From the IMG/VR virus record IMGVR_UViG_3300034147_000035, positions 1 through 59,737 of that record: a stretch of DNA of 59,737 bases. One strand, written 5' to 3'. The position numbers and the translations under genes were made by a program. The notes under the pieces are model-generated. The model was not told the origin of the DNA. It did no database searches and saw only the letters and a list, made by a program, of their open reading frames with translations. Shown piece after piece: positions 5,045 through 57,095 of this stretch (its first letter is position 1; every line of letters begins with the position of its first letter). Origin of the DNA: a virus. Lineage: Duplodnaviria > Caudoviricetes.

Positions 5045-5066
5045 CCGCCCGCCAGGGCCAGCCGCC

Positions 5067-5235: not shown

Positions 5236-5264
5236 TTGTCAATCCTCTCATCTCATGCTACACT
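5236..5264 (+). promoter_or_regulatory. Sigma70-type promoter, probably giving a leaderless mRNA
   Basis: TTGTCA-N17-TACACT, 6 nt before ATG 5271; no SD. Confidence 0.65.
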
Positions 5265-5270
5265 CACCCC

Positions 5271-5858
5271 ATGCGAATCCTCATATCTTGTGAGTTCTCC
5301 GGCATAGTACGCGACGCCTTCATCCGCCGCTCTGAGACGAACAACCTTAACCACGAAATAATCTCCTGCGACCTCCTACCCTCAGAATCCTCATTCGGCC
5401 CACATCTCCAGACCGACGTCCTAGGACTACTCGACAACGGCTGGGACCTCATGATCGCCTTCCCACCATGCACCTACCTCGCGAGATCAGGTATCCACCG
5501 AAACCGTGACTTCCCATCCCGAGAGCAAAAGACCAGAGACGCAGCCACCTTCTTTAAGCGACTCTGGAACGCCCCCATCCCGAGAATCTGTATAGAGAAC
5601 CCACCGGGAGTCATTCACAAGCTCACAGGAGTCCCGGTGCATCAAACAGTGCATCCTTGGCAGTTCGGCGACCCAATCTCTAAAACTGTCTGCCTACGGC
5701 TCAAAGGCCTCAAGCCGCTACGTCACCGCAAGTATGTCCCGCCTCCCTACACTTCCGCCAATGATCATCCAGCTAGCTATGATCGAGCACAGAACCGCAG
5801 TCGCTTCTTCCCCGGCATCGCAGCGGCTATGGCCGAGCAATGGGGCTCGTACGACTAA
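5271..5858 (+). CDS. Phage-type DNA (cytosine-5) methyltransferase
   Basis: N-terminal ISCEFSG, SCDLLP, catalytic FPPC, ENP, WQFG and C-terminal RS.FFPGIA.AMAEQW motifs. Confidence 0.8.
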   Translation: MRILISCEFSGIVRDAFIRRSETNNLNHEIISCDLLPSESSFGPHLQTDVLGLLDNGWDLMIAFPPCTYLARSGIHRNRDFPSREQKTRDAATFFKRLWNAPIPRICIENPPGVIHKLTGVPVHQTVHPWQFGDPISKTVCLRLKGLKPLRHRKYVPPPYTSANDHPASYDRAQNRSRFFPGIAAAMAEQWGSYD

Positions 5859-12981: not shown

Positions 12982-13311
12982 ATGCCCACCATCCCCGGCC
13001 CTGTGGATGATGCTGGCAACATCACTGTTCCCGCTGAAGGCGGGGCGACAATCCCCATTAAGGAAATGTCTACTGATGAACCCTCTGAACAAATAGATAT
13101 CTCATCGCTGCCGCTTAACTTCTATGTCGCTGGTCGCTTTGAAATAGTTCCGGGGCCAAATCCTAATGATGTTTTCGGTCGTCTTTTGGTTATCACTGAA
13201 GCGAATGCCGACATACTTTCCACTAAAGGTCATCCGTTTCAACTCCTGGATCTTACAGATCCTGACGTCCCTATCCCTCTTTGGAGTGGGACAATTCGGA
13301 GAGGTGAATGA
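12982..13311 (+). CDS. Hypothetical protein (109 aa), possible fibre adaptor
   Basis: AAGGAG RBS; ATGA-coupled to giant fibre gene. Confidence 0.7.
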   Translation: MPTIPGPVDDAGNITVPAEGGATIPIKEMSTDEPSEQIDISSLPLNFYVAGRFEIVPGPNPNDVFGRLLVITEANADILSTKGHPFQLLDLTDPDVPIPLWSGTIRRGE

Positions 13312-35469: not shown

Positions 35470-38400
35470 TTGGCTGATAGAGTTTATCTGCTTGAGTGCA
35501 AGCCCCTTGATCCAGCTTCTGGAACTATAAAGAATGCGTACTTTTCAGCGGGCCTTACCACTGAAGCAGATCTCGGTACAGCTGATCCTTATCCTGTAAG
35601 ACTGCAGAGATCCTTCTCACATGAGACTTCTGTTTTTGAAGATAATATGCCGGGGCAGACTAATACTTCCGTCGGTTCAGCAGTTATTCTAAATACGGAT
35701 GGTCGGTTTGATTATCTTCTCAATTACAACTGGGATAATCGTGCAGTCACTATTAAAAGTGGTGAGGAAGGAGCAGCCTACGCGACTTATGTTACTGAGT
35801 TTGTAGGAGTCACTCTTGAACTTACTACTGATCTCAGCAGTCTTGTTCTTACCCTGAAAGATAATAGCTACAAGTTAATTGAACAGATGCAGAAGACTAA
35901 GTTCCTCGGCTCCGGGGCGCAGGAAGGCGGAGTTGAACTTAGAGATCGCCGGAAACCCTTGCTATTCGGAAAGACTCGTAATCTTTCTCCGGTACTGATT
36001 GACATAGCTCTTCTCACTTCACAGATTCACGATGGTACTCTGGCTTCTGTGGATGCAGTTTATGATCGTGGTGTACCTTTAACATTTTCTGCGAACTATG
36101 CCACCTATGCTCTGCTCGCAGCAGCCACGATCGCCCCAGGATATTATGCAACTTGTCTGGCACAGGGCTATCTTCGTTTAGGAGCTCCTCCTTACGGTAT
36201 CGTTACAGTGGATGCCGTTGGTCAGTTCAACACTGCTACAAATATCCCTGAGATGGTGAAGCAATTTCTACTCAGTACACGAGTAGGTCTTGTCACAGCA
36301 GATATAGATGTTGCTTCTTTCACTGAAGCTTCCGGGGAATGTCCTTATAATTTTGAGGGTGCTTATTTAGCAGAACCAGACTTTCAGGTCGATCAATTCG
36401 TGGAGACTATGGCTTCTTCCATGAATGCTTTCTGGTATGTAAGTCGTACTGGATTAATCACTTTCCGTCAATTTAGGTTCCGTCCTTCATCTGCTTCTAT
36501 ACGCGCTGAAGATCTTATGAATCTTGGCAAGGCAGCATCTCCTCAACCTCTACATAAGGTTCGTGTGAAATACGCCAAGAATGCTACAGTCATGTCACAG
36601 GGGGATTTCACTATCCCTGTACAAGCATTCAATGGTTATCTCACGAAACGCTATCATTATGTAGATATCTCTTCTGGTGAAATTCCTGCGAATTATGCTA
36701 ATGCCGGTGAGTATAAAGTCTTCTTAAATGATGTTCAGGTGAACGATCTTTCGGACGTTCAGTTTAGGATTCCCAATAATGAACCGTGGATCACCATTGA
36801 TAACTTAGGTGTCATCACGGTAACGAATTCAGGGGTTGCTTCTGCGAGTGCTGTCGTACGCGCTAGCATTGGGGAGTTCTCAGTAGAAGAAGTCTTTACT
36901 ATGGTGCGGGATTCTTCTGCACCACTACAGTCAATGTCGTTGACGCTATCTAGTAATCGCTTCTTCTTTGATGATCTTAATAAACCGGATCCTCCCGCGC
37001 AGACTATCACTATAACTGCGACAGGAAGTAATACTACTGCGCCGATTACTGTCACGGCGAAAGACAATCTTAACCAGAATGTCGTAGTGACAGGCGGCAC
37101 TATCCCGATAGCGAATGTATCTGTATCTCCTTTGGTATTCTATATTGAAGTGACTGCTGTCTCTGTTGATATGGTTTATCAGAAGCAGCGCATCATGGTT
37201 CAGCATGGAACGGATGCCGCTATTGCTGCGACTCTAGCCGCACTAGCAGCGTCTAATGATGCGATTACTTTCTATTATCAAGCTAATGCCCCGACTGTTG
37301 AGACAGATGGTGTTCAGGTAGATGATGTTTGGATTGATACTAATGACGGGAATAAGCAATATCGTTGGACCGGAATTAGTTGGTCCTCTATAACCGATAC
37401 TAGAGTCACAGATGCACTAGCGGCTGCGGCGGGTGCTCAAGCAACGGCTGATGGCAAGATCACTACTTACTTTAGTGATGTGTCACCGACAGCCCCAACC
37501 GGAGGTTTTGTTCAGGGAGATCTCTGGTACCAAGATACTACGAAAACTCTGTATCGCTGGAGCGGTTCTGCTTGGAGCCAGTCTGTCGGCACTTTTGGAG
37601 CCGAGTACTATGAGACAGTTTATGGCAAGCCGCTGAGTGAAGTTCTTATTGATGAGATGGAGTATAAGAACTCTACCAAATTCGCGAAGCGTTGGCTGGT
37701 TCGTGAAGGCGAAGGCATTATCAATTATGATCAAAAAGATAAAGGTGTACAGGGTGGAGCATATCTAAGAATAACTAGTCCCACTGTTCCAGTGGAATTA
37801 GTTACTAACGGAACTTTTCCGACGGCTACTACAGGATGGACTGCTGGTCCTAATACGACATTATCTATCGGTGCTCAGGCATTACGAGTTACAACTACTT
37901 CTACTGTGAGTGCCTATGCCTATCAAGCGATTACTTGTGTCGTAGGTAAGACATATTCTGTCTCCTATGAAAATAATGAGCGGATTGCCACTAGTGTTAT
38001 CTTTCAAATTGCAAATGATTCGGCAGGAACTTCAACGGTATATAGCGATACCACTGAAAGAAGTAGTGTATATACTTCTACTTTCGTAGCGACACAAACC
38101 ACCCATTATATTCGCTGTGTTGCTGTCGCTACCATCTCTGGTCGTTATGCTGACTTTGACAATATCTCTATAATGCAGACTGCTCCCGGGGATATCTGGT
38201 TGAGCTATGTCGGCGAGCCTGTTCCTTTTGATCCAGCAGCTTCTTACGAAGTTGAGATCGCTATTCGCCGTCCGTCGGGAGATGGTAAGGTCAATCTCGG
38301 GTTAGAGGGTCTTGCTGATGACAAGGTGACTCTTGTAAGCCGAACAGGTACTAATTCATATACGACCCCTCACTGGATATGCGCGGCTGCGGCGACTCCT

Positions 38401-43047: not shown

Positions 43048-44811
43048 GTGAATATACAAATCACGATAGACTCCGACGATAAGAAGGCGTGGATTAATGA
43101 CCGCATACCTCCGCACGTCTTTAACGTTCTTGCAGAGCTCCCGGGCCGCAAGCGGTATGTACAGGGCAAACCCTTCATAGAGCTCTCGAGGAGCAACCTA
43201 GAGTATCTAGACATACGTTTGGAGGGCATCACTTGGCGCGGGCCAGCGGCCAACCTAGTGGAGCAATTCCGGGCGATGCGTCTCGCCGAGAAGAACACTA
43301 GGGATGCTCGTTGGCTTGAGCCAGAAAGTGTTGAATTCCCTTTCAGGACTGTTCCATACCAGCATCAGCTTAAAGCATTTTCACTCGCCAGAGGTAAAGT
43401 CGCCTTCGGTTACTTCATGGAGCAGGGAACTGGAAAGACCAAAACTCTACTTGATGATGCTGCGGATATCTATCTCAACGGCGGTGAGGCAGGACGGATA
43501 GACACTCTCATTATTGTAGCGCCGAACGGAGTACACGCTCAGTGGATTAATGAGCAGGTGCCCGAGCACTTTCTTGAGTCTATCCCTTACGCGGGCGGGT
43601 ACACAGTAGCGTCACCAACTCTAGATGAGGCTAGGCAGTTTCGTAAGGCTAAGGAATTCAAGGATGGTCTTAGGATCATCGCTATTCATATTGACATGAT
43701 GAGTCATACGAGCGGTAAGAAACTCTTACAGGAACTTCTGCTCAGTTGCAACGCGATGCTCGTGGTAGATGAGAGTAGCCGAATTAAAGATCCTAATTCT
43801 AAGCGCACTAAGACTCTGTGCGAGCTGGGTAAGTTAGCGAAATATCGGCGCATTCTGACGGGCACCCCGATCTCACAGGGAGTGGAAGATATCTATTCTC
43901 AGTTCTACTTCTTGGATAAGCATATCCTCGGCTACAATAGCTTCTATGCTTTCCGGAATCATTTCTGCCAGCTTACCTTGATTGAAGTAGGTTCTGGGAA
44001 GAATAGGAAGAAATTTAACAAGATCACCGGCTACATCAACGAAGACGAACTCAAGCGTAAGATTGATTCCTACACCTACCGCGTGCTGAAAGAGGATTGC
44101 TTGGATTTGCCTGAGCGAAATTATATTAGGCAGGAAGTCTTGCTCACCCAAGAGCAGAAAGATATGTATGCCAAGATGAAGAAGGACTTCTTCCTTGACT
44201 TGGAAGCTGGAATCCTCACAGCTCGTATGGCAATCACTCGCTTGATACGTTTCCAACAGCTAATCGGCGGATTCATTTGGAAGCGCCCAAAGAAGGATCC
44301 AGATACTGGGAAAATTGTTGAGCCCGAAATCTACCAAGAATTTGATAACAACCGTGTGGAACGTACCTTAGATATTATCCGTGAATCCCAGAGTAAGGTC
44401 ATCGTCTACATCAAATTCGAAGGTGATTGGAATCTTCTCACAAGGGCGCTCACCGCAGCGAAGATTGGATGGGTGGATTATGTCGGCCGAACTAAGGATA
44501 AGGCTGAAAGCATCAGGCGCTTCCGGGACGACCCAGACGTTAAGGTCTTCATCGGTTCAAAGGCTGCTTTCTTCGGTCTCAATCTTACTGTCGCTTCCGA
44601 GGTCATCTGGTATGCGAGAGACTTCTCCCTAGAGAATGAACTCCAGGCTAATGACCGAGTCCATCGCATCGGGCAGCATAAGGTTGTGAACTACCATTAT
44701 CTTATCGCACCTAAGACTGTGGATGACCGAATAGATAAGGTACTCAAAGATAAGAAGGCTATCGCTGAGAACCTAATAGACATAAGGGATCTTTTTGCTG
44801 ATGACGAATAA
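43048..44811 (+). CDS. SNF2-family (SF2) helicase
   Basis: MEQGTGKT, DESS, LTGTP, GLNL and QANDRVHRIGQ motifs. Confidence 0.92.
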   Translation: MNIQITIDSDDKKAWINDRIPPHVFNVLAELPGRKRYVQGKPFIELSRSNLEYLDIRLEGITWRGPAANLVEQFRAMRLAEKNTRDARWLEPESVEFPFRTVPYQHQLKAFSLARGKVAFGYFMEQGTGKTKTLLDDAADIYLNGGEAGRIDTLIIVAPNGVHAQWINEQVPEHFLESIPYAGGYTVASPTLDEARQFRKAKEFKDGLRIIAIHIDMMSHTSGKKLLQELLLSCNAMLVVDESSRIKDPNSKRTKTLCELGKLAKYRRILTGTPISQGVEDIYSQFYFLDKHILGYNSFYAFRNHFCQLTLIEVGSGKNRKKFNKITGYINEDELKRKIDSYTYRVLKEDCLDLPERNYIRQEVLLTQEQKDMYAKMKKDFFLDLEAGILTARMAITRLIRFQQLIGGFIWKRPKKDPDTGKIVEPEIYQEFDNNRVERTLDIIRESQSKVIVYIKFEGDWNLLTRALTAAKIGWVDYVGRTKDKAESIRRFRDDPDVKVFIGSKAAFFGLNLTVASEVIWYARDFSLENELQANDRVHRIGQHKVVNYHYLIAPKTVDDRIDKVLKDKKAIAENLIDIRDLFADDE

Positions 44812-45166
44812 AGTCTTTGTCCTGCAAGCCACCCGCTTCCAGGCCGACGTCAGCGCGGCGGGCGTGTATGGCGAGATCTGCTTTGTCCTCTCAGCAGGTG
44901 ATCGCACTTGCGCGAATCCCGAGCTGTCTTTTGAGAAACTGCGTCGTGCGCTCAAAGACTTCCGGCCTAACGAAGACTTCATAGTCTGGGCTGGAGGGGA
45001 TCCTCTATCAGCGATCATCACTGGAATGGTGCTCATTGATCTAGGCATAAACAAGTTTCGGTTTTTGCGTTTTGAGAAAAATCGTAATATAAGGCATGGG
45101 CAACCTGTTACCGGGTTCTATTCTCCTGTTGAAGTTTGTTTAGAAAAGGAAGCAGATTATGGCTGA
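44801..45166 (+). CDS. Hypothetical protein
   Basis: Overlaps helicase stop; GGDP motif. Confidence 0.7.
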   Translation: MTNKVFVLQATRFQADVSAAGVYGEICFVLSAGDRTCANPELSFEKLRRALKDFRPNEDFIVWAGGDPLSAIITGMVLIDLGINKFRFLRFEKNRNIRHGQPVTGFYSPVEVCLEKEADYG

Positions 45167-45707
45167 CGACGACGTAGACTTCTTTGAACAGGAAGACACT
45201 TCTCAGGGTGCCGACAAATTCAAAGGTGCGATCACTAACCTAGCCCGCGAGGTTAGGAACATTGACAACACCATTGAAGATCTCCAAACCCAGATGAAGG
45301 AGCTCGGTCGCCGCAAGATTGATATTGAGACCAAGCAGCTCCCGGAGCTGTTGCATCAGGCTGGTGTCAAAGAAATCACAACGCTGGAAGGGCTGAAGGT
45401 CAGCGTTAAGTTTGTTGTCGGTTCTATCCCGGCGGAGTCCAAGGAATCTGCCTACGAATGGCTGGACGACAATGGTCACGCCGATATCATCAAGCGGAAC
45501 CTTGCTCTTCAATTCCAGAAGGGTGATACTTCTCAAGCCGAACAGGCTGCGGCGGCGCTTCGCGAAATGGGATTCAGCCCCACTATCAAGTTAGACATTC
45601 ACCCTCAGACCTTTATGGCGTTTGCGCGCGAGCAGATTCAAAACGGCAAGATACTCCCTCTTGCTCAATGGGGTGTCTACTTCGGAGATCGGGCGGTAAT
45701 AAAGTAG
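45159..45707 (+). CDS. Conserved replication-region phage protein
   Basis: Coiled coil, WL..NGH.DIIK and HPQT..AF.RE motifs. Confidence 0.75.
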   Translation: MADDDVDFFEQEDTSQGADKFKGAITNLAREVRNIDNTIEDLQTQMKELGRRKIDIETKQLPELLHQAGVKEITTLEGLKVSVKFVVGSIPAESKESAYEWLDDNGHADIIKRNLALQFQKGDTSQAEQAAAALREMGFSPTIKLDIHPQTFMAFAREQIQNGKILPLAQWGVYFGDRAVIK

Positions 45708-45724
45708 TCCGAGCAAAATATCAC

Positions 45725-45752
45725 TTGCGTTGTGAGCAAACTAGCTTATAGT
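45725..45752 (+). promoter_or_regulatory. Sigma70-type promoter
   Basis: GAGCAA upstream; TTGCGT-N16-TATAGT. Confidence 0.55.
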
Positions 45753-45792
45753 GATATGTCTGGTGGTAAACCAGTTGATAGAGGAGAGTCTA

Positions 45793-46659
45793 ATGGCGGA
45801 AAAGAAAACGGAAGCTGAGAAACCGGTAGATCCCAAGCCCGAGGCTGGCGGCACAGATCTAGCGACAAAACCTCAGGAATCCACAGATCTCGCAGAAACG
45901 GAAGAGGAAGACTTTTTCGCTGATGCGGGTGAGGGCTTGCAGGATTTTTCGCAAACCGATTATCTCATCCCATATGTTCGCATTATCCAGGCGCTCTCAA
46001 AGGAGCTCCAGAAAAATCATGCGAAATTCCTCAAGGGTGCCGAGCAGGGCATGTTCGTCAACTCGGCGACCAGGAAGCTCATCAATGGTGAGGCTGGTTT
46101 CCTCGCTGTTCCTGTGAGCTTCAATCATCGTTACATGGCGTGGCTGCCGAATAATGCCGGTCCAGCCTACGACATGGGCGACGACCCCTCCAAGTTCAAT
46201 GCGACTCAACCAGTCGCTGAGGGCAAGGACAAGGGCAAGCGGTTTGATGATGAGGGCAACCAACTCACGGACGCCCTTCAGTTCTTCATCATGCTGGTCA
46301 ATAAGGAAACCTTTGAATTCGAGGTTGCGGTTCTCAACTTCGCAGCTTCCCAAGCCCGCAAGGGTCGCGGATGGGTTTCCACTATTGGCAATCGTATGGA
46401 GCGGAAGGACGGTCAGCTAATTCGCCCCGCCATTTACTTCTACTCCTACGAAATTACCACGGTACCTGAGTCTAACGACCAAGGTTCGTGGTACGGTTTC
46501 CTTATCAACGAGGGACCGAAGGTGATGGATCTCGAGAACGGCCGAGAGATCTTTCGTACCGCCAAGCAACTGCGCGAGCGGATCAAGGCGGGTGAAGTGA
46601 AGGCAGCGGTTGAAGAGCCGGATGCCGACGCTGAGGCCGGAGAAGAGAAAGCGTTCTAA
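45793..46659 (+). CDS. Putative ssDNA-binding or annealing protein
   Basis: D..IP...I.Q.LS and N..GSWY motifs; acidic tail ending in Phe. Confidence 0.65.
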   Translation: MAEKKTEAEKPVDPKPEAGGTDLATKPQESTDLAETEEEDFFADAGEGLQDFSQTDYLIPYVRIIQALSKELQKNHAKFLKGAEQGMFVNSATRKLINGEAGFLAVPVSFNHRYMAWLPNNAGPAYDMGDDPSKFNATQPVAEGKDKGKRFDDEGNQLTDALQFFIMLVNKETFEFEVAVLNFAASQARKGRGWVSTIGNRMERKDGQLIRPAIYFYSYEITTVPESNDQGSWYGFLINEGPKVMDLENGREIFRTAKQLRERIKAGEVKAAVEEPDADAEAGEEKAF

Positions 46660-47319: not shown

Positions 47320-47341
47320 TACACCTTCCGTGGGTGGGACT

Positions 47342-47375
47342 GGGAGGCGGGTGTCTTTGGCACTCGCCTCTCTTT
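47342..47375 (+). terminator. Rho-independent terminator
   Basis: GGGAGGCGGGTGTC-TTT-GGCACTCGCCTCTC then TTT. Confidence 0.6.
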
Positions 47376-47390
47376 CGTTGGAGACTCGCT

Positions 47391-48278
47391 GTGAACCAAG
47401 AGAATTTTGAGACTTTCGTATTCTACCTTAATGAACGCGAGAAAATTCGCCAGATGCGCGAGGAAGGATCTCCAGGTCCCTGGACACTTGACCCAATCTT
47501 AGGTCGCTACAAGTTCACAAACATACGACGTTCCGATGATCGCACTACCCGCTGGCTGAAGAAGAATTGGTACGATCCTAACCGCGATGCTGATCTGGAA
47601 ATGCTCGTTATTAACTGCGCTCTCGCCAGATACTTTGGCAGCATTGAATTCTGTTCTGCTGTCGGTTTTCAGCAGAGTTGGAATCCCGAGTTTCTTTTGC
47701 AGACAGCGAATGATAGACTCAGCCGGGGTGAGAAGGTATTCACTGGAGCCTACATTATTACGAATGCTGGAAGCACCGACCCCAAGCAAAATGTCGTAGT
47801 TTGTCAGTTCCTCACACCACTTAGGTTTCGCGCCGCCCGCGTGGTAGAGCTCTGTCAGCGTAATCGCTGGCAAGATGTCGCAGAGTTTCTTCAGCAGCAG
47901 CCGGGGATCGGCCCGTTCATGTCCAAGGAGATTGCGCTGGATATGATGTTGACTCCTCTCCTGGAAAATGCAACCGATAAGCTAACATGGAGTCCCGCAG
48001 GTCCTGGGGCGATTCGTGGCTTGAACCGTCTGCATGATCGCCCGTTGCAAGCGCCTTTGTCTCAACCGAAGGCTGTAGCTGAGATGATAGACCTTCTCGG
48101 GCTGCTCAGCACAGGAGGTCACCTCCGACCATACATGCCGACTCCAGGCGTTGATTACGGCGTTACAGATGTTCAGTTCAGCCTTTGTGAACTAGACAAA
48201 TATCTCCGAGTCAAGAATGGTGAAGGACGTCCACGCTCTGGTTACGATTGGCGAAAGGCAAAACCGTACACGGTCTGA
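47391..48278 (+). CDS. aGPT-Pplase clade 1 / 5-hmdU DNA kinase helical-domain-like protein
   Basis: ERE.IR..R..G..PWT.DPIL..YKFTNIRR.DDRTT, GPGA.RGL and LCE.DKY.R motifs. Confidence 0.8.
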   Translation: MNQENFETFVFYLNEREKIRQMREEGSPGPWTLDPILGRYKFTNIRRSDDRTTRWLKKNWYDPNRDADLEMLVINCALARYFGSIEFCSAVGFQQSWNPEFLLQTANDRLSRGEKVFTGAYIITNAGSTDPKQNVVVCQFLTPLRFRAARVVELCQRNRWQDVAEFLQQQPGIGPFMSKEIALDMMLTPLLENATDKLTWSPAGPGAIRGLNRLHDRPLQAPLSQPKAVAEMIDLLGLLSTGGHLRPYMPTPGVDYGVTDVQFSLCELDKYLRVKNGEGRPRSGYDWRKAKPYTV

Positions 48279-48363
48279 GTTATTTTGAATTAGCGTTTTG
48301 AGAAATTACCTGCTAGGGTTATAAGACTGGGGTTCCTCAGTAAAACCATAGAAAGGGTAAGTC

Positions 48364-48525
48364 ATGCAAGAAGAAAATGAGGTCGTTGACGCTCCGGTTG
48401 AACCCGTAGCCGAAGAGCCGCAGCCCGAGGAGCAGCCCGCTGAAGAGCAGCCGCCCGAGGATGAGCCTCCGGTGGAGCCGAACAACGAAGTCGCTGAAGA
48501 GCCCAACGAAGATCCGGAAGAATAA
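48364..48525 (+). CDS. 53-aa hyperacidic Glu/Pro peptide
   Basis: AAAGGG RBS; 22 of 53 residues D/E, no K/R/H; below ORF-track cutoff. Confidence 0.65.
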   Translation: MQEENEVVDAPVEPVAEEPQPEEQPAEEQPPEDEPPVEPNNEVAEEPNEDPEE

Positions 48526-48549
48526 ACTTTAACTGGGAGAGATTGTTCC

Positions 48550-49362
48550 ATGCAAATATTCATTCCTACTCGTGACAGGGTAAATGCTCAATTTACATGG
48601 GACAATCTCACTCCTAGGCTGCAAGCGGCTACCCGCTTAGTGGTACCGGCGGATGAGGTCTCGAGCCATCTCGAGCGTTCTCGAAACGTGGTAGCCCGCC
48701 CCGCTGGCCCCCTTAGCGGGGTACGCCAATGGATAGTCGATGAGCTTGCTACGCCGGGTCAGCCCGTGATTATGCTTGACGATGATCTAGCATTCTTTGT
48801 TAGGAAAGACCCTCGAGCCCATAATCTCCGTCCGGCGGGAGCCGACGTTGAACGAATTATGGACTGGCTAGATGAGATGGTTCAGCCGAATTTCTCCAAC
48901 ATGAGTTATGTCCACGCTGGACTCTCACCACGACAAGGAAATAACTGGTGCTACCCCGACAAGCATCAGACTATCCAGCGAATGAACGCTGTTCATTGCG
49001 TGAACCCTGAAGCACTCCGTCACTATGGTATTCGCTATGATGCCGTTGACATGATGGAAGACTACCACGTTGTCCTCAGTCTCTTTGAAGTTGGGGAGAA
49101 GAACATTGTTCTTACGGACGCGGCTTGGGATCAGTGTAAGGGGAGTGGCGCTCCCGGAGGTTTTACTCATTACCGTACAAAAGAGACTCAGGCCGCCGCG
49201 TCGCATCGCCTCGCGGAACTACATCCTCTTTCGGTTAAGGTTGTTGAGAAGGAGCCAAAGACGGGAAGTGGTGGGTTCGCTGGTAAAAGAACTGATGTCC
49301 GTGTCCAGTGGAAGCAAGCCTACCAGAGAGGCACGCGGAATCCCACCTACAATATGAGGTGA
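48550..49362 (+). CDS. GT-A fold DNA glycosyltransferase (TAGT/GREB1/JGT-like)
   Basis: IFIPTR.R, RQWI, MLDDDL (DxD), EDYH and GG...R motifs. Confidence 0.7.
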   Translation: MQIFIPTRDRVNAQFTWDNLTPRLQAATRLVVPADEVSSHLERSRNVVARPAGPLSGVRQWIVDELATPGQPVIMLDDDLAFFVRKDPRAHNLRPAGADVERIMDWLDEMVQPNFSNMSYVHAGLSPRQGNNWCYPDKHQTIQRMNAVHCVNPEALRHYGIRYDAVDMMEDYHVVLSLFEVGEKNIVLTDAAWDQCKGSGAPGGFTHYRTKETQAAASHRLAELHPLSVKVVEKEPKTGSGGFAGKRTDVRVQWKQAYQRGTRNPTYNMR

Positions 49363-49365
49363 TTC

Positions 49366-50439
49366 ATGTACGAATTCGACATTGATTGCCCGAATGAGGG
49401 ACTCGGCCGTGTGATGCGAGTGCTGAGAGAAAATGGCATCACGACTACCAGTAGGAACGGCCCGGTCATTCGCTTCCCTGAGCCAGTAGCTCTTCAATAC
49501 TCAAACCCTCGGCGCCGAATCCTGGACAATCCTATTCGGGACGCTAATCCTTTCTTTCATATGTTTGAGACTCTGTGGATGCTGGCAGGTTTGAATACTG
49601 TCGCACCACTAGAGCTCTATAATTCTGGGATGAAGCAGTACTCCGATGATGGAGTGACATTCGCAGCACCTTACGGATATCGTTGGCGAAAGCGATGGGG
49701 CGACCAGATTCTCAAGGTTGTAGAGAAACTGAAGAAGAATCCTGAAGATCGTCGCATTGTCTTACAGATGTGGGATCCCAAGGAATTATTCAAGGATGAA
49801 GGTCTAGATTTCGCTTGTAATCAACAGGTCTTGTTTGATACACGACCTACGACGATTCATCCCAGTGGCTACTACCTTGACATGACAGTCACCAACCGTA
49901 GCAATGATCTTATCTATGGTGCGATGGGTAGCAATCTCTACCATTTCTCTTTCCTGCATGAATTTATCGCGCTTCATACAGGGCTAGGACTTGGGACCTA
50001 CTATCAGATCTCCAAGAATATGCACTTGTATCTTGAGAATCCCGCTTCCAAGCACTGCTGGGAACATATGCTGGAGATTGAAAAGGGGCCGAAATCTCCA
50101 GAGGAAGATCTTAGTCTGAGCGAGTTCGGAATCCCTCTTGAAATAGAACCGTATAGGAATTTCGTCAACTACAACAAGATCACAGATGATGTCCTTGCTG
50201 ACCCAAGTTGGCTGACTACGGTTGCGAAACCGATATGTGAAGCGTATCGAGTCTATAAGTATAAGATGCTTACTGGTCTTGATATTGAGTTTGAGCTGAG
50301 GATTGAGTTTGCTTTAGCGGCTCTAGAACATTGCAGATCTGATGCTCTAGGACTAAATTGCGAAGCATGGTTTCAGCGAAGACTTGAGAATTATAGCCGG
50401 AATAAGATTACCATAGTAGAAGCGGAGAGACCAGATTGA
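49366..50439 (+). CDS. Thymidylate-synthase-family protein, probable dUMP hydroxymethylase
   Basis: SRNG, NPFFH..E, YGYRWR, RRIVLQMWD, catalytic Cys (FACN), RSNDLIYGAMGSN (dUMP-type Asn) and H.Y motifs. Confidence 0.85.
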   Translation: MYEFDIDCPNEGLGRVMRVLRENGITTTSRNGPVIRFPEPVALQYSNPRRRILDNPIRDANPFFHMFETLWMLAGLNTVAPLELYNSGMKQYSDDGVTFAAPYGYRWRKRWGDQILKVVEKLKKNPEDRRIVLQMWDPKELFKDEGLDFACNQQVLFDTRPTTIHPSGYYLDMTVTNRSNDLIYGAMGSNLYHFSFLHEFIALHTGLGLGTYYQISKNMHLYLENPASKHCWEHMLEIEKGPKSPEEDLSLSEFGIPLEIEPYRNFVNYNKITDDVLADPSWLTTVAKPICEAYRVYKYKMLTGLDIEFELRIEFALAALEHCRSDALGLNCEAWFQRRLENYSRNKITIVEAERPD

Positions 50440-51002
50440 GCTACATTGAAGCATGGCGAAATGGACAGGTTGTTCGCAAGCACACGATGGAGAACATCCG
50501 TGCGGAGAATGATGCTGAGCATACATGGGGTCTGACCATGCTCCTCATCTGTGCTTGGCCTAATGTCCCAGAGCATATTATCAAGATGGCTATTATCCAC
50601 GACTGTGGAGAGCGAGCCACTGGTGATATGCCGGGGCCGACTAAGTGGGCCAATCCCGTCCTTGGGGATGAGATGGATAGGCTTGAGAAGCAGCATATCA
50701 TGGACACGCTGCCTGAGCATTTATGCGATGACTATAAGACGACCACTGAAAGTGAATGGGCAGTCATTGAATTCTTTGATCGCGCTGAATTCTGTATCAG
50801 CATGGCGCGTGAACGACGCCTCGGAAACACCTATGCCATGATCTACATGGAACGCTCATACAATAAAATGACGCAGACGTTTGATAATCATAAGGTTGCC
50901 TTTACGAAAATGGACACTGAGCTGCTCATGGGTATGATGGATCTTCGTGCAGAGATTCGTACCGAGATGGATAAGCTCGAGCGGGGAGATTTCAAGTGGT
51001 GA
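50436..51002 (+). CDS. HD-domain nucleotide phosphohydrolase
   Basis: AEH.W, HD..E...GD.P.P.K and D motifs (YfbR-like). Confidence 0.85.
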   Translation: MSYIEAWRNGQVVRKHTMENIRAENDAEHTWGLTMLLICAWPNVPEHIIKMAIIHDCGERATGDMPGPTKWANPVLGDEMDRLEKQHIMDTLPEHLCDDYKTTTESEWAVIEFFDRAEFCISMARERRLGNTYAMIYMERSYNKMTQTFDNHKVAFTKMDTELLMGMMDLRAEIRTEMDKLERGDFKW

Positions 51003-51397
51003 AAGCTAATGACATCCAGCACGGTGGAACTCACTATAAGAAAGCGAAGTATCAGCACTGGGACTTGATTGCCGAAAACCGTATCGGCTATCTTGAGGGC
51101 TGTGGTTCTAAGTATGTTTCTCGCTGGCGGGATAAGAACGGTGTGGAGGATCTTCAGAAGGGGATGCACTACACTGACAAGTTGATTGAGTGCTACTATC
51201 AATATGACTATCGCGCAACTGGTCATACCCCACAGTCCTGTCTTAATCTCTTCTTTGAAGAAAACCAGATCACAAACGTCAATGAGATAGAGGCTATCAC
51301 TATCCTTTGCACTTGGCGAACTGTAGCTGAACTGGAGCAAGCTAAGCATCATATTAAGCTGCTCATTCTGGCAGCAGGAAGTCTCACTGTAGGGTAA
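50996..51397 (+). CDS. DUF3310 protein (T7 gp1.7-like nucleotide kinase)
   Basis: GG.HY, KY..RW..KNG.EDL.K..HY motifs. Confidence 0.85.
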   Translation: MVKANDIQHGGTHYKKAKYQHWDLIAENRIGYLEGCGSKYVSRWRDKNGVEDLQKGMHYTDKLIECYYQYDYRATGHTPQSCLNLFFEENQITNVNEIEAITILCTWRTVAELEQAKHHIKLLILAAGSLTVG

Positions 51398-51402
51398 AGC
51401 CC

Positions 51403-53490
51403 TTGTCCAATGAGAACCAGCTTGTTATACAGGCGTTACTGGACAGCCCCGTTAAACCTCGGGGTAGTCGCAGCAAGCGAAAGAATACTACCATGCTGGA
51501 TATGTTCTCGGACTTACCCGAGTTACATGGACCTATTACTCTAGATACTGAAAATCACGATCCGCTTCTTAAGACTCGCGGTTCAGGATGGGCCTACGGT
51601 CGCGACGGGCAGAACGGTGGTAAGATCATAGGCATTGCGGTAAACGCCGACAACTTCCACGAATATCTACCAATCAGTCATACCGAAGGAAACCTTGATC
51701 CTGCAAAGGTGAAAGGATGGCTCAAGCAGCAGCTCACTAAAGATGAGCTCCAGCCCAAGATCTTCTTCCACGCACAGTATGACGTTGGCTGGCTCCAGGT
51801 GGAGGGTATCCCAATCCGTGGACCAATCCATGACGTCTCATTCCAAGCACCACTCCTTGACGAGCATCGTCCAAACTACATGCTGGATCGCTTAGGCAAA
51901 GACTACTTAGGCCGAGGCAAGGACGAAAAGTTACTGGCGAAAGCTGCCGCAGACCTAGGCATCAAGAATACGAAGAGCGATAACATTAAGATGCATCTCA
52001 TGCGGGTGCATCCAGACATCGTTGGAGTCTATGCCCGGGAGGACGTGGCGCTTACCAGAGAGCTCTGGGATCTATACAATCCCATGATTGAGGAAGAGAA
52101 CCTAGGCGAAGTCTACCAACTTGAGTGTGATCTTATTCCCATGTTGATAGACATGCGGCTCAGAGGAGTAAGGGTCGATGTTGCCCAATGCGAAAAAGAA
52201 CAGGCGGGTCTAGTTCTAGAAGAGAGCAAGGCCCGCTTATTCATTAAGGATAAGACAGGTATCACTGTTGGTAGCTGGGACAATGCTGCCGAGCTTTCCA
52301 AGGTCTTTGACAAGCTAGGAATTAAGTATGGACTCACGGAGAAAACAGAACAACCGTCCATCACTGCTGATTGGCTTCGTGGTCTTGGGCATCCTGTCGC
52401 TGATGCTATTCTTCGTGGACGTAAAACAAATAATATTCGCAGTACATTCCTTGAGAACGCCCTCCTTAATCTCCAAGAGAACGGTCGTATCTATCCGAAC
52501 TTCAACCCTCTCAAGCGTGACGATGAAGGCGGCGCAGGCGGCGTCCTAGGAAAGGAACTCAAGGCTGGTGTTCGTGGTGCGTTGTCTGGCAGGTTTAGTT
52601 CCAGCCAGCCGAACTTTCAGCAGATGCCTTCACCGGAGAAGGATCCCGAACTAGGTTACATGGTTCGCCAGTTGATTCTACCTGAAGAGGGTGAAGCCTT
52701 TCATGTGATGGACTATTCGTCCCAGGAACCTCGCCTGACAGTTCATTTCGCAGAGGTCACAGGCTGCTGGAAAGCTGCCCAGATGGCTGAACGGTTCAGG
52801 GAAGATCCTAACACCGACTTACATGACGAAACTCGCAAGATGGTGGCGCAGAAACTAGAAGAGTGGAAAGATCCTAAGAAGCGTAAGTCAGCGAAGACTA
52901 TTAACCTCGGCGTTGCTTACGGGATGGGAGGCGGTAAGCTAGCCCTATCCTTAGGACTTCCATACACCCAAGCATCCTTCAAGAAGATTGTGAACGGTGA
53001 GGACTTTGAGTTTAAGTATCTCAAAGCAGGGCCAGAAGCCCAAGAGCTTATGGACATTTTTGATGAAGCTGCACCGTTCATCCGCCAGCTTGCGAAGAAG
53101 GCCCAGAATGCTGTAAAGCAGAAGGGTCATATTAGGACACCAATGGGTAGGCGATTCAGATTCCACAAGGAAGAAGATGGGCGGGGCTGGAAATTCCTGA
53201 ACAAATCATTGAACCGTCTTATCCAAGGTAGCGCCGCTGATATGACCAAGCTAGCTATGCGCGATATGTATAGGGCTGGAATTCTACCACACGGAACAGT
53301 TCACGATGAGATTGATATCAGTGCAGGTGACCCGAAGATTGTAGCTGAAGTGAAGCACATCATGGAACATGCGATGGAACTCACTATTCCTGTTGTAGTT
53401 GATGTGGGCAGCGGACATAATTGGGGACAGGCTTCCATGGAGAAGCTAGGCGCAGAAAATTACCAGAAATTCTTGGAAGGGAAGTTGTGA
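51403..53490 (+). CDS. Family A DNA polymerase with 3'-5' exonuclease
   Basis: LDTE, HAQYD, YA.ED; motif A DYSSQEPR, motif B KTINLG..YG, motif C VHDE. Confidence 0.95.
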   Translation: MSNENQLVIQALLDSPVKPRGSRSKRKNTTMLDMFSDLPELHGPITLDTENHDPLLKTRGSGWAYGRDGQNGGKIIGIAVNADNFHEYLPISHTEGNLDPAKVKGWLKQQLTKDELQPKIFFHAQYDVGWLQVEGIPIRGPIHDVSFQAPLLDEHRPNYMLDRLGKDYLGRGKDEKLLAKAAADLGIKNTKSDNIKMHLMRVHPDIVGVYAREDVALTRELWDLYNPMIEEENLGEVYQLECDLIPMLIDMRLRGVRVDVAQCEKEQAGLVLEESKARLFIKDKTGITVGSWDNAAELSKVFDKLGIKYGLTEKTEQPSITADWLRGLGHPVADAILRGRKTNNIRSTFLENALLNLQENGRIYPNFNPLKRDDEGGAGGVLGKELKAGVRGALSGRFSSSQPNFQQMPSPEKDPELGYMVRQLILPEEGEAFHVMDYSSQEPRLTVHFAEVTGCWKAAQMAERFREDPNTDLHDETRKMVAQKLEEWKDPKKRKSAKTINLGVAYGMGGGKLALSLGLPYTQASFKKIVNGEDFEFKYLKAGPEAQELMDIFDEAAPFIRQLAKKAQNAVKQKGHIRTPMGRRFRFHKEEDGRGWKFLNKSLNRLIQGSAADMTKLAMRDMYRAGILPHGTVHDEIDISAGDPKIVAEVKHIMEHAMELTIPVVVDVGSGHNWGQASMEKLGAENYQKFLEGKL

Positions 53491-54035
53491 TGCCAGAAGA
53501 ACCTGAGAAGCCGACCGATTTCATCAACGACCCAGATCTGAGTGTTACGGGTACTTTCACTTATGAAGATACTACACTTAGGATGCCTTCCCCTGAAGAG
53601 ATGATGCCTTGTGCTAACTTAAAGATTAAGCTTCTGCATCCAGCAGCGATCGTCCCCAAGCAAGGTTCACCTCACTCGGCTGGTTATGATCTCTTCTGCG
53701 TTGAGGATTTTGTAATCGGTCGCCAACAGACCTTACTGATTCCTCTTGGTTTCGCTACTGAGATGCCCATACAGATTCATGGGCGTATTGAGTCTCGATC
53801 AGGCTTTGCAACTAATGGTCTTGTCGTTCTTACCGGGGTGATTGATCCTGACTATCGTGGTGAGTGGAAGGTTATTCTACGCAATGTCTCTCCTTATGCA
53901 GAGCAGCGTATTCTCAAGGGAACCAAGATCGCACAGGTAGTCTTTCGGCCGACCTATAGGGCTAGCTGGACAGAATCTGCCGAGCTTGAAGATAGTGATC
54001 GTGGCACTGGTGGATTCGGGAGTACAGGACAATGA
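53490..54035 (+). CDS. dut: Trimeric dUTPase
   Basis: AGYDL, RSG, GVIDPDYRGE, IAQ and RGTGGFGSTG motifs. Confidence 0.95.
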   Translation: MPEEPEKPTDFINDPDLSVTGTFTYEDTTLRMPSPEEMMPCANLKIKLLHPAAIVPKQGSPHSAGYDLFCVEDFVIGRQQTLLIPLGFATEMPIQIHGRIESRSGFATNGLVVLTGVIDPDYRGEWKVILRNVSPYAEQRILKGTKIAQVVFRPTYRASWTESAELEDSDRGTGGFGSTGQ

Positions 54036-55127: not shown

Positions 55128-56529
55128 ACTCACTTATGAAGACCTGAATGACCAACAGAAAGCTGCGGTGGATGACATCGTACGTTGGTTCTTATCAGGC
55201 GACCACTCCAAGCCGTACATCCTTCAGGGCTATGCCGGAACAGGTAAGACTACCCTCATTCGCATTCTACTTAACCGACTTCGCGTGGCTCTCTCGCGCG
55301 TAGCATTAGCAGCCCCTACTAATCGTGCTGCTAAGGTTCTCGCAAACAAGACGGGTCTGTTCACGCAAACAGTTCACAAGTTAATCTACCTCACACTGTC
55401 GGAAGAAATCAATTTCCAGCGTGAACGACTTCGCATGTGGGATGAGGCTGTCAGTTTTAACGAGCTCAGTGAGGCTCTTATCACTCAGTCAGGGCAGGAT
55501 CTCCAAATGGAGTACCGTGCTCTACTAGCAGAAGATGGTCTCGCTTTTGACGAAGCCGAATTCAAGGAATTCTGTGCTCAACGTGGTGAGACTATCCTCA
55601 AGTTTGAAGGTTTGGAATTGCCTACCGATCCCAATGCTAGGCAGGAGATCTTCGTCACCATCCGCAAGGAAAAGATCGCACTGCACAAGCAAGCTATCAT
55701 TGATCTTATGTCTGAGGATCTTCCAGTGCGTAAGAAAGAGCCGCTGGAAGTCATCGCCAAGTACAGCCTCTTTATGATAGACGAGTCTTCCATGGTCAAT
55801 GAGACTCATGGTAAGGACATTATCTCCTTCGGTATCCCGACGATTCTAGTTGGGGACCCATTTCAGCTACCACCCGTCAAGGCGAAGCCCTATTGGCATA
55901 ACCTGTCGCCTCAATCGGTGCTGACCAAGATTGAACGCCAGAAAGGTATTGGTGCCGGAATTCCTCTTGCAGGTGAAAGGCTACGCAATGGAGAAGAAAT
56001 TTCCGCAAATGAAAGCGTCAGCATTCACCACCGCAATTCACTCCCTGACGCAGCTTGGACAAGCACAGATCAAATTATCTGTGGAACTCACAAAACTCGC
56101 GAGCGCCTTTGCCGCTTTGTCCGAGCGAAAATGGGACATACCACCGCCCACCCTCAGCCGGGTGAAAAAGTCGTTTCTGTCTATAACGACAAGAAGCGAG
56201 GAATAATGAATGGTGAGATCTATACTGTTCGTAGTAGTGAGGTGATTCGTAATGGTACTGTTGCACGACTCTCCATCATTGATCCGTACGGTCGGGTTAT
56301 TGAGCCGGTTGATGTATGGATCAAAGGCCTCGGGGGTAGAAGTTTCACCGATTTCCTCGACGATCAATTCGGAAAATTCTGGTGGGGATACGCCATTACC
56401 TGTCATCAATCCCAGGGATCCGAATGGCCCCGAACAATCGTGTGCGACGACTGGCCGGGAGACGGACACGACCGATGGCTCTATACAGGATTGACCCGCG
56501 CCCAACAGCACTGTGATCTTGTCAGATGA
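55117..56529 (+). CDS. RecD/Dda-like SF1B helicase
   Basis: GYAGTGKTT, APTNRAA, DESSM, GDPFQLPPV, T.H.SQGSEW and YTGLTRA motifs. Confidence 0.92.
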   Translation: MTIELTYEDLNDQQKAAVDDIVRWFLSGDHSKPYILQGYAGTGKTTLIRILLNRLRVALSRVALAAPTNRAAKVLANKTGLFTQTVHKLIYLTLSEEINFQRERLRMWDEAVSFNELSEALITQSGQDLQMEYRALLAEDGLAFDEAEFKEFCAQRGETILKFEGLELPTDPNARQEIFVTIRKEKIALHKQAIIDLMSEDLPVRKKEPLEVIAKYSLFMIDESSMVNETHGKDIISFGIPTILVGDPFQLPPVKAKPYWHNLSPQSVLTKIERQKGIGAGIPLAGERLRNGEEISANESVSIHHRNSLPDAAWTSTDQIICGTHKTRERLCRFVRAKMGHTTAHPQPGEKVVSVYNDKKRGIMNGEIYTVRSSEVIRNGTVARLSIIDPYGRVIEPVDVWIKGLGGRSFTDFLDDQFGKFWWGYAITCHQSQGSEWPRTIVCDDWPGDGHDRWLYTGLTRAQQHCDLVR

Positions 56530-57095
56530 GTCCTCGTCCCCCATATCCTATTCAGCCATTTCCCAAGGTCAAGGACTATGTCGCTTACGCTGGCATCGGT
56601 TCAAAGGAGACTCCCGACAATATCTGTCACTTGATGCGGGGGATTGCTCGTATGCTGTACGACCGGGGCTATGTTCTCCGATCAGGTGGCGCACCGGGAG
56701 CTGACGAAGCATTCGAACAGGGGACTCCAGTGATGGCGACCATGGAGATCTTTCTCCCGTGGAATCGCTTCAACGGCAAGCCCGATCTTCTTCATCTCAC
56801 CCCGACGGAACTTGGCGTAGCCAGAAGCATCGCTGAGAAATATCATCCGAATTGGTTGGCTTGTTCCGAAGGTGCGAAAAAGCTGCACACTCGTAACACA
56901 ATGCAGATTCTAGGGCGTGATTGTGCAACCCCTTCTAAATTCGTAGTCTGCTGGACTAGCAATGGTAAAGCGATTGGTGGTACAGGTCAAGCTCTCCGCA
57001 TCGCTGAAGACAAGAAAATTAAGATCTACAACCTACATGATCCTGGAACACGAATACTATTCTACCAAGAGTTAGGCTGGGAACATGACTTATAA
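56526..57095 (+). CDS. SLOG/DprA-like nucleotide-binding protein
   Basis: YAGIGS..TP, LRSGGA.GAD.AFE, RN..QILG and GGTGQA.RIA motifs. Confidence 0.85.
   Translation: MSPRPPYPIQPFPKVKDYVAYAGIGSKETPDNICHLMRGIARMLYDRGYVLRSGGAPGADEAFEQGTPVMATMEIFLPWNRFNGKPDLLHLTPTELGVARSIAEKYHPNWLACSEGAKKLHTRNTMQILGRDCATPSKFVVCWTSNGKAIGGTGQALRIAEDKKIKIYNLHDPGTRILFYQELGWEHDL

Follow-up and report, generated by a model that had tools for sequence, protein, structure and literature searches.

What does a tailed phage do with thymine when the genes expected to replace it by 5-hydroxymethyluracil (hmU) stand beside a DNA-type glycosyltransferase (GT), in the place held elsewhere by a kinase and a transferase? The question is raised by a run of genes on the plus strand of the IMG/VR virus record IMGVR_UViG_3300034147_000035 (Duplodnaviria; Caudoviricetes), a linear sequence of 59,737 bases that was analyzed over its whole length and is called here the window. 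A preliminary description, made from the letters of the sequence, had read this run as a thymidine-hypermodification cassette that glycosylates or otherwise decorates hmU by a route different from that of the M6/ViI-type phages. Because an hmU gene set is combined with a DNA-type GT in place of the kinase and transferase, the DNA probably carries a sugar-bearing, base-J-like thymine. We put at about 60% the probability that the cassette is a tailed-phage module that replaces thymine by hmU and then attaches a sugar to it, giving base-J-like DNA. Those parts of the earlier reading that a sequence can speak to, namely the grouping of the hydroxymethylase, the DNA type of the GT, the absence of the kinase and transferase, the conservation of the unit and the recurrence of TC/GA-free islands in genomes that have it, withstood the analysis, while an acidic peptide that it had included did not.

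We assigned families by searching the open reading frames (ORFs) of the window with Pfam, PHROGs and NCBIfam profiles (Table 1). All eight genes first named in the cassette are present on the plus strand, where they had been placed or close by, as judged from the ORFs and from the Pfam and PHROGs matches. The family A DNA polymerase (PolA; 695 amino acids (aa)) matches PF00476 (E 1.3e-48) and PF01612, has the exonuclease as its sole extra domain, and is 35-37% identical to the polymerases of PaMx11-like and other phages. The dUTPase matches PF00692 (E 8e-27) and passes the cut-offs of both TIGR00576 (121.2 bits, cut-off 102.55) and NF001862 (105.7 bits, cut-off 103); its translation probably begins beyond the stop codon of PolA. 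The HD-domain protein scores 55.6 bits with PF12917 (cut-off 25.9) and also matches PF13023, but with 42.6 bits it does not reach the cut-off of 122 of the NCBIfam equivalog, and is therefore a member of the YfbR family rather than an equivalog. Its gene holds the same position as M6 gp59 and PaMx11 gp52. Removal of deoxythymidine monophosphate (dTMP) by a nucleotidase is familiar from phages with hmU in their DNA; this background, the YfbR family and the synteny with M6 and PaMx11 suggest that the HD protein would remove dTMP or competitors in the pool of deoxyuridine monophosphate (dUMP). The DUF3310 protein passes PF11753 marginally (25.3 bits, cut-off 24) and matches phrog_5839 (E 7e-31) and phrog_236, named 'nucleotide kinase' (E 6e-16), and its gene takes the position of M6 gp61. 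The link between DUF3310 and T7 gp1.7 stated in PMC10700055, the PHROG names and its place beside the hydroxymethylase (in M6, in PaMx11 and in 39 of the 80 loci described below) make it a candidate kinase for the monophosphate of 5-hydroxymethyldeoxyuridine (hmdUMP). The acidic low-complexity ORF does exist, but it has no family, and unrelated small ORFs were found in all seven related loci examined. We therefore do not count it as a part of the system, and it probably lies outside it.

Table 1. Position and family assignment of the cassette genes and of the dinucleotide-depleted island in the window
Feature	Position	Strand	Family match or content
aGPT-Pplase clade 1 (Pplase1)	ORF 47334-48278, probable start 47391	+	PF18723 'HMUDK_hel', E 1.7e-38
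53-aa acidic low-complexity ORF	48364-48525	+	no family match
TAGT-family GT-A glycosyltransferase	48550-49362	+	PF20691, phrog_842
Thymidylate-synthase-fold enzyme, proposed dUMP 5-hydroxymethylase	49366-50439	+	PF00303, phrog_5131
HD-domain YfbR-like 5'-deoxynucleotidase	50436-51002	+	PF12917, PF13023
DUF3310 protein, T7 gp1.7-type nucleotide kinase family	50996-51397	+	PF11753, phrog_5839, phrog_236
Family A DNA polymerase (PolA) with 3'-5' exonuclease domain	51403-53490	+	PF00476, PF01612
Trimeric Dut-type dUTPase	ORF 53421-54035	+	PF00692, TIGR00576
TC/GA-free island	3941-5192		one TC at 4510; 63.6% G+C

The enzyme of the thymidylate-synthase fold, hereafter the synthase homolog, contains the signature RSNDLIYGAMGSN, exactly as it had been read at first. 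It matches PF00303 (68.9 bits) and phrog_5131 (E 4e-87). Its best relatives among phages come from the PaMx11-like and M6/Yua-like groups that infect Pseudomonas and are 36-40% identical to it over more than 90% of its length. The alignment with M6 gp58 and PaMx11 gp51 (36-38% identity) covers the full protein, and C151, RSND and N190 are invariant in it; according to the available text of Lee 2018 and Lee 2022, the DNA of M6 and PaMx11 carries hmU-derived bases. The nearest relative by sequence in the PDB is the CMP 5-hydroxymethylase MilA (E 5e-23), while the best thymidylate synthase follows at E 2e-8. The Asn within the GSN of the synthase homolog aligns with an Asp of the cytosine-specific MilA and with an Asn of thymidylate synthase, at a position that in thymidylate synthase and dCMP hydroxymethylase sets the specificity for uracil or cytosine. 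Asn is found there in 74 of 74 relatives covering the motif, the other two of the 76 being cut by contig ends. We propose that the synthase homolog is a dUMP 5-hydroxymethylase of the uracil type: at the level of sequence, both the grouping with the hydroxymethylases of M6 and PaMx11 and the uracil-type Asn agree with the initial call of a hydroxymethylase. A separate idea, that GT-bearing phages lacking Pplase1 have a cytosine-type (Asp) hydroxymethylase, was dropped, as loci L067 and L076 also have Asn.

The GT belongs to the TAGT family PF20691 (35.6 bits, cut-off 27.5) and matches phrog_842 (E 1e-35). Its homologs number 178 at E<=1e-5 among 1337 candidates, and most of the 120 listed carry PF20691. 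In 44 aligned sequences R59 and D77-D79 never vary, and at least 90% conserve E170 and D171, which a Tyr follows in the window protein. The available text of Pyle et al. (bioRxiv 10.1101/2023.12.21.572611) describes the motif R...DDD...EDY/F in phage GT-A enzymes that glycosylate 5-hydroxymethylcytosine (5hmC) in DNA. The earlier assignment to the GT-A fold is thus borne out by the family, by the R...DDD...EDY motif, by an AlphaFold2 (AF2) model with a predicted local distance difference test score (pLDDT) of 94.9, and by the GT-A enzymes that Foldseek returns for this model. We propose that the GT is a DNA-type GT-A enzyme that would glycosylate hmU in DNA at its 5-hydroxymethyl group.

The preliminary description had not recognised the P-loop 5-hydroxymethyldeoxyuridine (5-hmdU) DNA kinase and the amino acid:DNA transferase with which M6/ViI-type phages continue after hydroxymethylation, and had proposed a profile search of the rest of the genome for both. 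Once run, this search gave the same result. Neither the kinase (PF18748) nor the transferase (clade 2, PF18724) has a match at E<=1 in the window or in the records of four relatives, one of which (G002) is 91.9 kb long with direct terminal repeats, and each model stays below its family cut-off in all of the 49 other GT-bearing records (0 of 49). Both models recover their positive controls in M6 and PaMx11 (65.8 and 17 bits for the kinase, 159.7 and 97 bits for the transferase), and a Walker-A scan found no small P-loop ORF in the window or in its relatives G001 and G002. The gene orders can be set side by side. In M6 the order is gp51 transferase - gp52 pyridoxal-phosphate (PLP) enzyme - gp53 radical S-adenosylmethionine (SAM) enzyme - gp54 kinase - gp55 Pplase1 - gp56 Nmad5 - gp57 - gp58 hydroxymethylase - gp59 HD - gp60 - gp61 DUF3310 - gp62 PolA, and in PaMx11 gp46 transferase - gp47 flavin adenine dinucleotide (FAD) enzyme - gp48 acetyltransferase - gp49 kinase - gp50 Pplase1 - gp51 hydroxymethylase - gp52 HD - gp53 - gp54 - gp55 PolA. 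The window reads Pplase1 - GT - hydroxymethylase - HD - DUF3310 - PolA - dUTPase. All three therefore have the core in common, and in the window a single GT stands in for the kinase, the transferase and the tailoring genes.

Many phages keep Pplase1, GT and the synthase homolog together as a unit. Nine close IMG/VR relatives keep the order of the window from the SNF2 helicase through the Dda-like helicase, and a profile scan of IMG/VR returned 360 GT relatives among 470 pattern matches. The best 80 of these 360 served as a set of loci, from which 50 records were picked with a preference for long contigs; 49 of them were examined. Within the 80 loci, local hidden Markov models (HMMs) detected the synthase homolog in 76, Pplase1 in 73, PolA in 59, HD in 46 and DUF3310 in 39, and the kinase and transferase, each modeled from two sequences, in none. 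Since near-duplicates and the nine close relatives of the window are among them, these loci do not amount to 80 independent cases. The genes are found in three layouts: Pplase1-GT-synthase homolog-HD-DUF3310-PolA, Pplase1-GT-synthase homolog-PolA-HD, and PolA-GT-Pplase1-synthase homolog-DUF3310. PF18723 is present in 46 of the 49 GT-bearing records; of the 14 records with a completeness of 90% or more, 13 have it. The records without it are G007 (a fragment with the GT at its edge), G032 and the complete G036. Cultured phages account for only seven records with GT matches. One is the Brevibacterium phage LuckyBarnes, whose host is B. iodinum ATCC 15728 and whose gene order is synthase homolog-GT-GT-Pplase1, and the circular MW202897 has GT-hydroxymethylase-HD-DUF3310 and no Pplase1; neither the kinase nor the transferase was found in these two. 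The synthase homolog of LuckyBarnes (locus L002, 7436-8989; 517 aa) has a C-terminal extension of about 200 aa that is absent from the other seven enzymes aligned.

The pathway that we propose would comprise six steps, in which the catalysis, the sugar and its acceptor are all predicted from these families and their neighborhood. dUMP would be supplied by the dUTPase and converted into hmdUMP by the synthase homolog. The DUF3310 protein, as a kinase of the T7 gp1.7 type, would then form the diphosphate hmdUDP, and the nucleoside diphosphate (NDP) kinase of the host the triphosphate hmdUTP, while the YfbR-like HD nucleotidase would drain the competing dTMP. The PolA of the phage would incorporate hmdU into DNA. 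After replication the GT, which resembles TAGT enzymes and the base-J glucosyltransferase (JGT), would use an NDP-sugar as donor to glycosylate the 5-CH2OH of hmU, giving 5-(glycosyloxymethyl)uracil, a base that resembles base J.

This scheme leaves Pplase1 without a fixed task. From the start at 47391 the protein is 295 aa long, the same length as the 99%-identical P0123; it scores 133 bits with PF18723 (cut-off 25) and is 36% identical to M6 ORF055/gp55. The same family is matched by M6 gp55 (E 8e-56), which is annotated aGPT-Pplase1 in the records, and by PaMx11 gp50, yet its present name in Pfam is '5-hmdU DNA kinase, helical domain'; in SP10 the PF18723 domain is fused to the kinase, according to the accessible part of Lee 2018 (Table 3). 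We follow the clade numbering of Pfam and Lee 2022, which Table 3 of Lee 2018 gives the opposite way. There are 1281 Pplase1 homologs at E<=1e-5, and PF18723 is found in all of the 120 listed. An alignment of 39 sequences contains many invariant residues, including an L-C-E-x-D-K-Y near the C-terminus (Cys263, Glu264). The AF2 model consists of helices throughout (pLDDT 94.6). With it Foldseek gave no significant match (best E 0.13), and the list is made up mostly of DNA glycosylases of the helix-hairpin-helix (HhH) fold; a sequence search of the PDB returned nothing at E<=10. A text search of the literature for the function of clade 1 produced no paper among the matches listed, and under one query two genome descriptions only. 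As Pplase1 occurs in GT loci that lack the kinase, clade 1 does not need the kinase, and the amino-acid and sugar branches have this one enzyme in common. Our guess is that Pplase1 is a base-flipping, Cys-dependent enzyme acting on a 5-substituted uracil in DNA, for example on hmU that was not glycosylated. The statement in the available text of Lee 2022 (PMC8989533) that hypermodifying phages turn hmU 'to either a hypermodified base or canonical thymine' suggests one possible job for it.

A larger role for Pplase1 is the strongest of the alternatives, although we consider it unlikely. As the key transferase, it would attack C6 with its Cys and expel the 5-substituent, be it water or a sugar added by the GT, after which another nucleophile or a hydride would add. 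The product would then differ from glycosyl-hmU: it might bear its sugar on a linker, like the bases of SP-15, YerA41 and Carin-5, or some sites might end up as thymine. The invariant Cys263-Glu264 recall clade 2, where, in the available text of Lee 2022 (PMC8989533) and in PMC11472151, a Cys and a nearby Glu are essential and the Cys attacks C6 of 5-phosphomethyl-dU; in PaMx11 gp46 this is Cys247 (PMC11472151). The top TM-scores of the Pplase1 model, 0.40-0.43, are also those with PaMx11 gp46/PUGT, but at E-values of 0.6-0.8, and gp46 shows no significant similarity to the clade-1 alignment when profiles are compared (probability 0.04), so that Cys263 cannot be equated with the catalytic Cys of clade 2. 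There is also one weak match: positions 129-227 of the clade-2 transferase (ADDT) profile hit, with 16 bits, the C-terminal part of the clade-1 gene of G030 (11243-11578; the record behind locus L072). This is the sole hint at the sequence level that the C-terminal, Cys-bearing parts of the two clades may be related. Such a role would suit the nearly constant company of the two genes, Pplase1 lying beside the GT in 73 of the 80 loci, and it has parallels, since linker-attached glycosylated thymidines exist in phages of a group that also has aGPT-Pplase genes (PMC13697223, PMC12686479), and M6-type phages are stated, in the available text of PMC8989533, to convert the remaining hmU into T. However, the activating kinase is absent, no gene for a linker donor was seen among the scanned ORFs, and two complete genomes have a GT and a synthase homolog without Pplase1; in addition, M6 gp55 is reported in the available text of Lee 2022 (PMC8989533) to be dispensable when the M6 modification is reconstituted in lysate. 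A prediction of the complex of GT and Pplase1 scored 0.00 and is uninformative either way.

Highly unlikely, in our judgment, is a GT that does not act on DNA at all. The DNA would then contain plain hmU, as in SPO1, or hmU partly converted into T, and the GT would modify a surface polymer or a protein of the host. Indeed, the best solved structural matches of its model are the wall-teichoic-acid enzymes RmlT, TarP and TarS (E 4e-6 to 1e-4, TM 0.4-0.53), and its sequence finds nothing in the PDB at E<=10, the solved DNA glycosyltransferases included. However, according to the available text of Pyle et al., TarP is the top PDB match also of the phage GT-A enzymes that act on 5hmC, whose top match in the AlphaFold database is the base-J glucosyltransferase of T. 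cruzi, and the window protein has the active-site motif of these DNA enzymes and of JGT. PF20691 is moreover the family of a T6 gene held likely to be responsible for the second glucose (PMC13390438). The position of the gene, within the replication and nucleotide module and beside the synthase homolog in 76 of the 80 loci and in three different orders, also speaks for DNA as the substrate.

The least probable alternative, of which we expect very little, makes the synthase homolog either a normal thymidylate synthase or a hydroxymethylase for cytosine, with canonical T or modified C in the DNA: the PHROG and record annotations do read 'thymidylate synthase', and the catalytic Cys and the dUMP-binding motif are as in that enzyme, but none of the seven NCBIfam thymidylate-synthase equivalogs is reached (best 69.2 bits with a cut-off of 327; all cut-offs 108-427), MilA is closer than any thymidylate synthase of the PDB, the specificity position has Asn and not Asp in the window as in all 74 relatives, the closest phage relatives come from groups whose DNA is known to be hmU-derived (M6, Yua and PaMx11), and a plain dTMP pathway has no role for the accompanying HD, DUF3310 and Pplase1.

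If glycosyl-hmU is the product, the genome itself may indicate where it is made. The preliminary description had seen the cassette as the likeliest cause of a TC-free island. This island is real (Table 1): TC and GA are both missing but for a single TC, whereas TC/GA-free gaps in the rest of the window reach at most 49 nucleotides (nt), and no other pair of dinucleotides leaves a gap above 248 nt. Its G+C content compares with 50.8% for the genome. The two ORFs in the island, 4232-4744 and 4811-5044, have no GA codons and hence encode no Asp or Glu. Contigs of two other runs span both borders with 0 differences, so the island is not an assembly artifact of this record. In G001 and G002 the same place is free of TC and GA over 1102 and 1070 nt, with ORFs that are 55-58% and 75-80% identical to the two of the window; the dinucleotide ban has therefore been kept through much protein change. 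The 20 GT-bearing genomes that we compared have G+C contents between 37% and 57% and include each of the three layouts. Ten have a stretch of at least 600 nt (the window, G001, G002, G003 with its 9.5-kb locus only, G012, G014, G016, G020, G023 with 660 and 711 nt at two contig ends, and G035), three have one of 120-260 nt (G021, G039 and G047), and seven stay below 100 nt (G033, G036, G041, G043, G044, LuckyBarnes and MW202897).

The island lies beside packaging genes in all six genomes whose neighbors were mapped. It is directly upstream of the large terminase gene in G014, G016 and G023 and 1.4 kb upstream of it in G035, while in the clade of the window it precedes the portal gene and the terminase is found elsewhere. 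As kinase-type controls we had only M6 and PaMx11, in which the longest TC/GA-free stretch is 51 nt (50 of 59 kb) and 64 nt (46 of 60 kb), respectively. No island was seen in six distant portal relatives, all of which are fragments and thus weak controls; portal relatives in IMG/VR were obtained by an alignment-based search (12 loci), a single-sequence search having returned nothing. An Atlas search with the ORF at 4232-4744 gave scores of at most 0.84, led by helix-turn-helix (HTH) proteins, with a poor Atlas model of the ORF product (pLDDT 0.47), and a scan of 3800-5400 for promoters and terminators counted no more of them than in shuffled sequence. The 195-aa ORF that comes right after the island (5271-5858, plus strand) matches phrog_757 'DNA methyltransferase' (E 3.6e-42) and no Pfam or NCBIfam family; it has a homolog at the same place in G001 and none there in G002, despite the island.

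Enzymes that modify T in a TC context have a precedent in a phage thymidine dioxygenase with a strong NTC preference (PMC13229309), and the available text of PMC8989533 says that thymidine-hypermodifying phages modify hmU 'in sequence-specific contexts'. The modification is probably aimed at T followed by C, with glycosylation dependent on context, a reading that fits the strand symmetry and the location of the island. The region next to the packaging genes may be kept unmodified on both strands, perhaps as a site that packaging proteins read. The tie between cassette and island stands as an association: islands of at least 600 nt recur in half of the GT-bearing genomes compared, but seven of the 20 do not have even 100 nt, and there are two controls. 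A fuller version would have hmU glycosylated only at TC and a modification-free zone of about 0.6-1.4 kb maintained by the packaging genes, at the cost of Asp and Glu, for the packaging machinery or another reader, with Pplase1 as a general Cys-dependent editor of hmU in both branches. We put this forward tentatively, being more inclined to doubt it as a whole than to accept it.

Several observations weigh against sugar-bearing hmU as the outcome. The record is estimated by CheckV to be 82% complete, and since the proven kinase of PaMx11 reaches only 17 bits, a divergent kinase could have been missed. The TAGT score of the GT is modest, and the top solved matches to its model are only the cell-wall teichoic-acid glycosyltransferases, at TM 0.4-0.53. 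No gene for NDP-sugar synthesis was found among the approximately 45 larger ORFs of the window that were scanned with Pfam or PHROGs. TAGT enzymes can add a sugar to a sugar, as in T6 (PMC13390438), so that the family does not fix the acceptor. MW202897 and G036 have the GT and the synthase homolog without Pplase1, which is thus not needed by the GT everywhere. Finally, the seven genomes that lack the island include LuckyBarnes.

The cassette sits in an otherwise recognizable tailed-phage genome, with nearly all long ORFs on the plus strand. It encodes a portal protein (DUF4055), a scaffold-like protein, a GP7-type capsid protein, a tail tube protein, a 1862-aa tape measure protein and a 3832-aa protein, and the replication module begins at about 43 kb. 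The 3832-aa protein is encoded by a single ORF (13308-24806, plus strand) with nine 'phage tail repeat' units (PF12789), and is therefore seen as a giant fibre-like protein; the idea of an N4-like virion RNA polymerase was dropped because of these nine repeats. Comparison of ORFs showed nothing corresponding to it at that place in G002. The first 13 kb, the head module, have a G+C content of 54-63% and the remainder one of 44-56%, the step coinciding with the start of the tail-repeat gene at 13308; G001 and G002 have 56-57% overall. We found no homolog of the large terminase in the window. In G001 (14891-16171) and G002 (35583-36863) the gene lies in the part that the window lacks, and in G002 about 42 kb separate the counterparts of the two ends of the window. 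The missing part of the record therefore likely includes the packaging enzyme. Upstream of Pplase1, between the SNF2 helicase and a 211-aa HTH-like ORF, three consecutive genes (44795-46659, plus strand) match the Pfam families derived from cyanophage Pam3 gp32, gp33 and gp34, a trio kept in those close relatives whose loci extend far enough upstream. After the Dda-like helicase there is a DprA-like recombination mediator (56526-57095, plus strand; phrog_768, E 5e-58). A nucleotide search with the cassette gave zero matches in 50,697 phage records, and the sequence is contained in 24 listed metagenome runs from sediment, groundwater and freshwater sediment.

Natural glycosylated hmU, whether base J or a related base, has until now been associated with kinetoplastids, and none is reported for phage DNA among the matching titles and abstracts listed. 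With 360 GT relatives in IMG/VR, the cassette predicts that glycosyl-hmU DNA would be widespread in environmental phages, and LuckyBarnes offers a cultured test case. The bare association of GT-A genes with 'ThyS' genes is already in print, as the available text of Pyle et al. counts such neighbors in metaviromes; its main text, as available, does not contain the words Pplase, HMUDK or 'DNA kinase'. In the searchable part of the literature we found no account of the uracil specificity, of the nearly constant partnership with aGPT-Pplase clade 1, of the absent kinase route or of the recurrent TC/GA-free islands. The loci studied here also separate clade 1 from the kinase after whose 'helical domain' Pfam names PF18723, and so place the orphan Pplase1 in a second, simpler genetic context in which its function could be worked out. 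From sequence alone, the islands may reveal the likely target context and a region that needs to stay unmodified, and new DNA glycosyltransferases defined by context could be useful as reagents for mapping hmU.

Among known systems, the clusters of M6, PaMx11 and ViI, as described in the available text of Lee 2018 and Lee 2022, share with the window the order aGPT-Pplase1 - hydroxymethylase - HD - DUF3310 - PolA and the logic of building hmdU before replication and tailoring it afterwards. They differ in what follows. No PF18748, PF18724, PLP, radical-SAM, FAD or acetyltransferase tailoring genes of the M6 and PaMx11 kind were found in the window, where a GT stands between Pplase1 and the hydroxymethylase, and the expected product is a sugar adduct rather than an amino-acid-derived base. 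As the kinase and the transferase, the two defining features of the M6/ViI family, are both missing, we do not file the window system there. SP-15, YerA41 and Carin-5 are alike in having sugar-bearing T modifications, a synthase homolog, a dUTPase and, in some, an aGPT-Pplase (PMC13697223, PMC12686479), but they have several GTs, sugar-nucleotide enzymes and an SP15-type polymerase fused to uracil-DNA glycosylase, none of which was seen in the window.

The phage GT-A DNA glycosyltransferases of the TAGT type, which accompany TET/5mYOX dioxygenases or occur in T6-like phages (Pyle et al. 2023, PMC13390438), have the family, the fold and the R...DDD...EDY motif in common with the GT of the window. 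In the available text, however, the characterized enzymes act on 5hmC or glucosyl-5hmC, whereas the partner of the window-type GT is a uracil (Asn) hydroxymethylase in 74 of 74 cases, joined by Pplase1 in 73 of 80 loci. Base J of kinetoplastids, made by JBP1/2 and JGT, is alike in the expected O-glycosylated hmU and in a GT-A enzyme related to JGT, as far as the available text of Pyle et al. goes. There, J arises from oxidation of T within DNA, while in the phage hmU would come from a hydroxymethylase acting on nucleotides and be incorporated wholesale. The JBP/TET hydroxylase model (Tet_JBP, PF12851), run without a positive control, finds nothing at E<=0.1 in the window or in its relatives G001 and G002.

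A parallel in design is the glucosylation of 5hmC in T-even phages, in which a hydroxymethylase of the synthase fold and pool enzymes act before replication and a DNA glycosyltransferase after it. The window would have this two-stage scheme transposed to uracil: where the T-even phages modify cytosine with alpha- and beta-glucosyltransferases of the GT-B fold, the window has uracil, a GT-A enzyme of the TAGT family and, in addition, an HhH-fold Pplase1.

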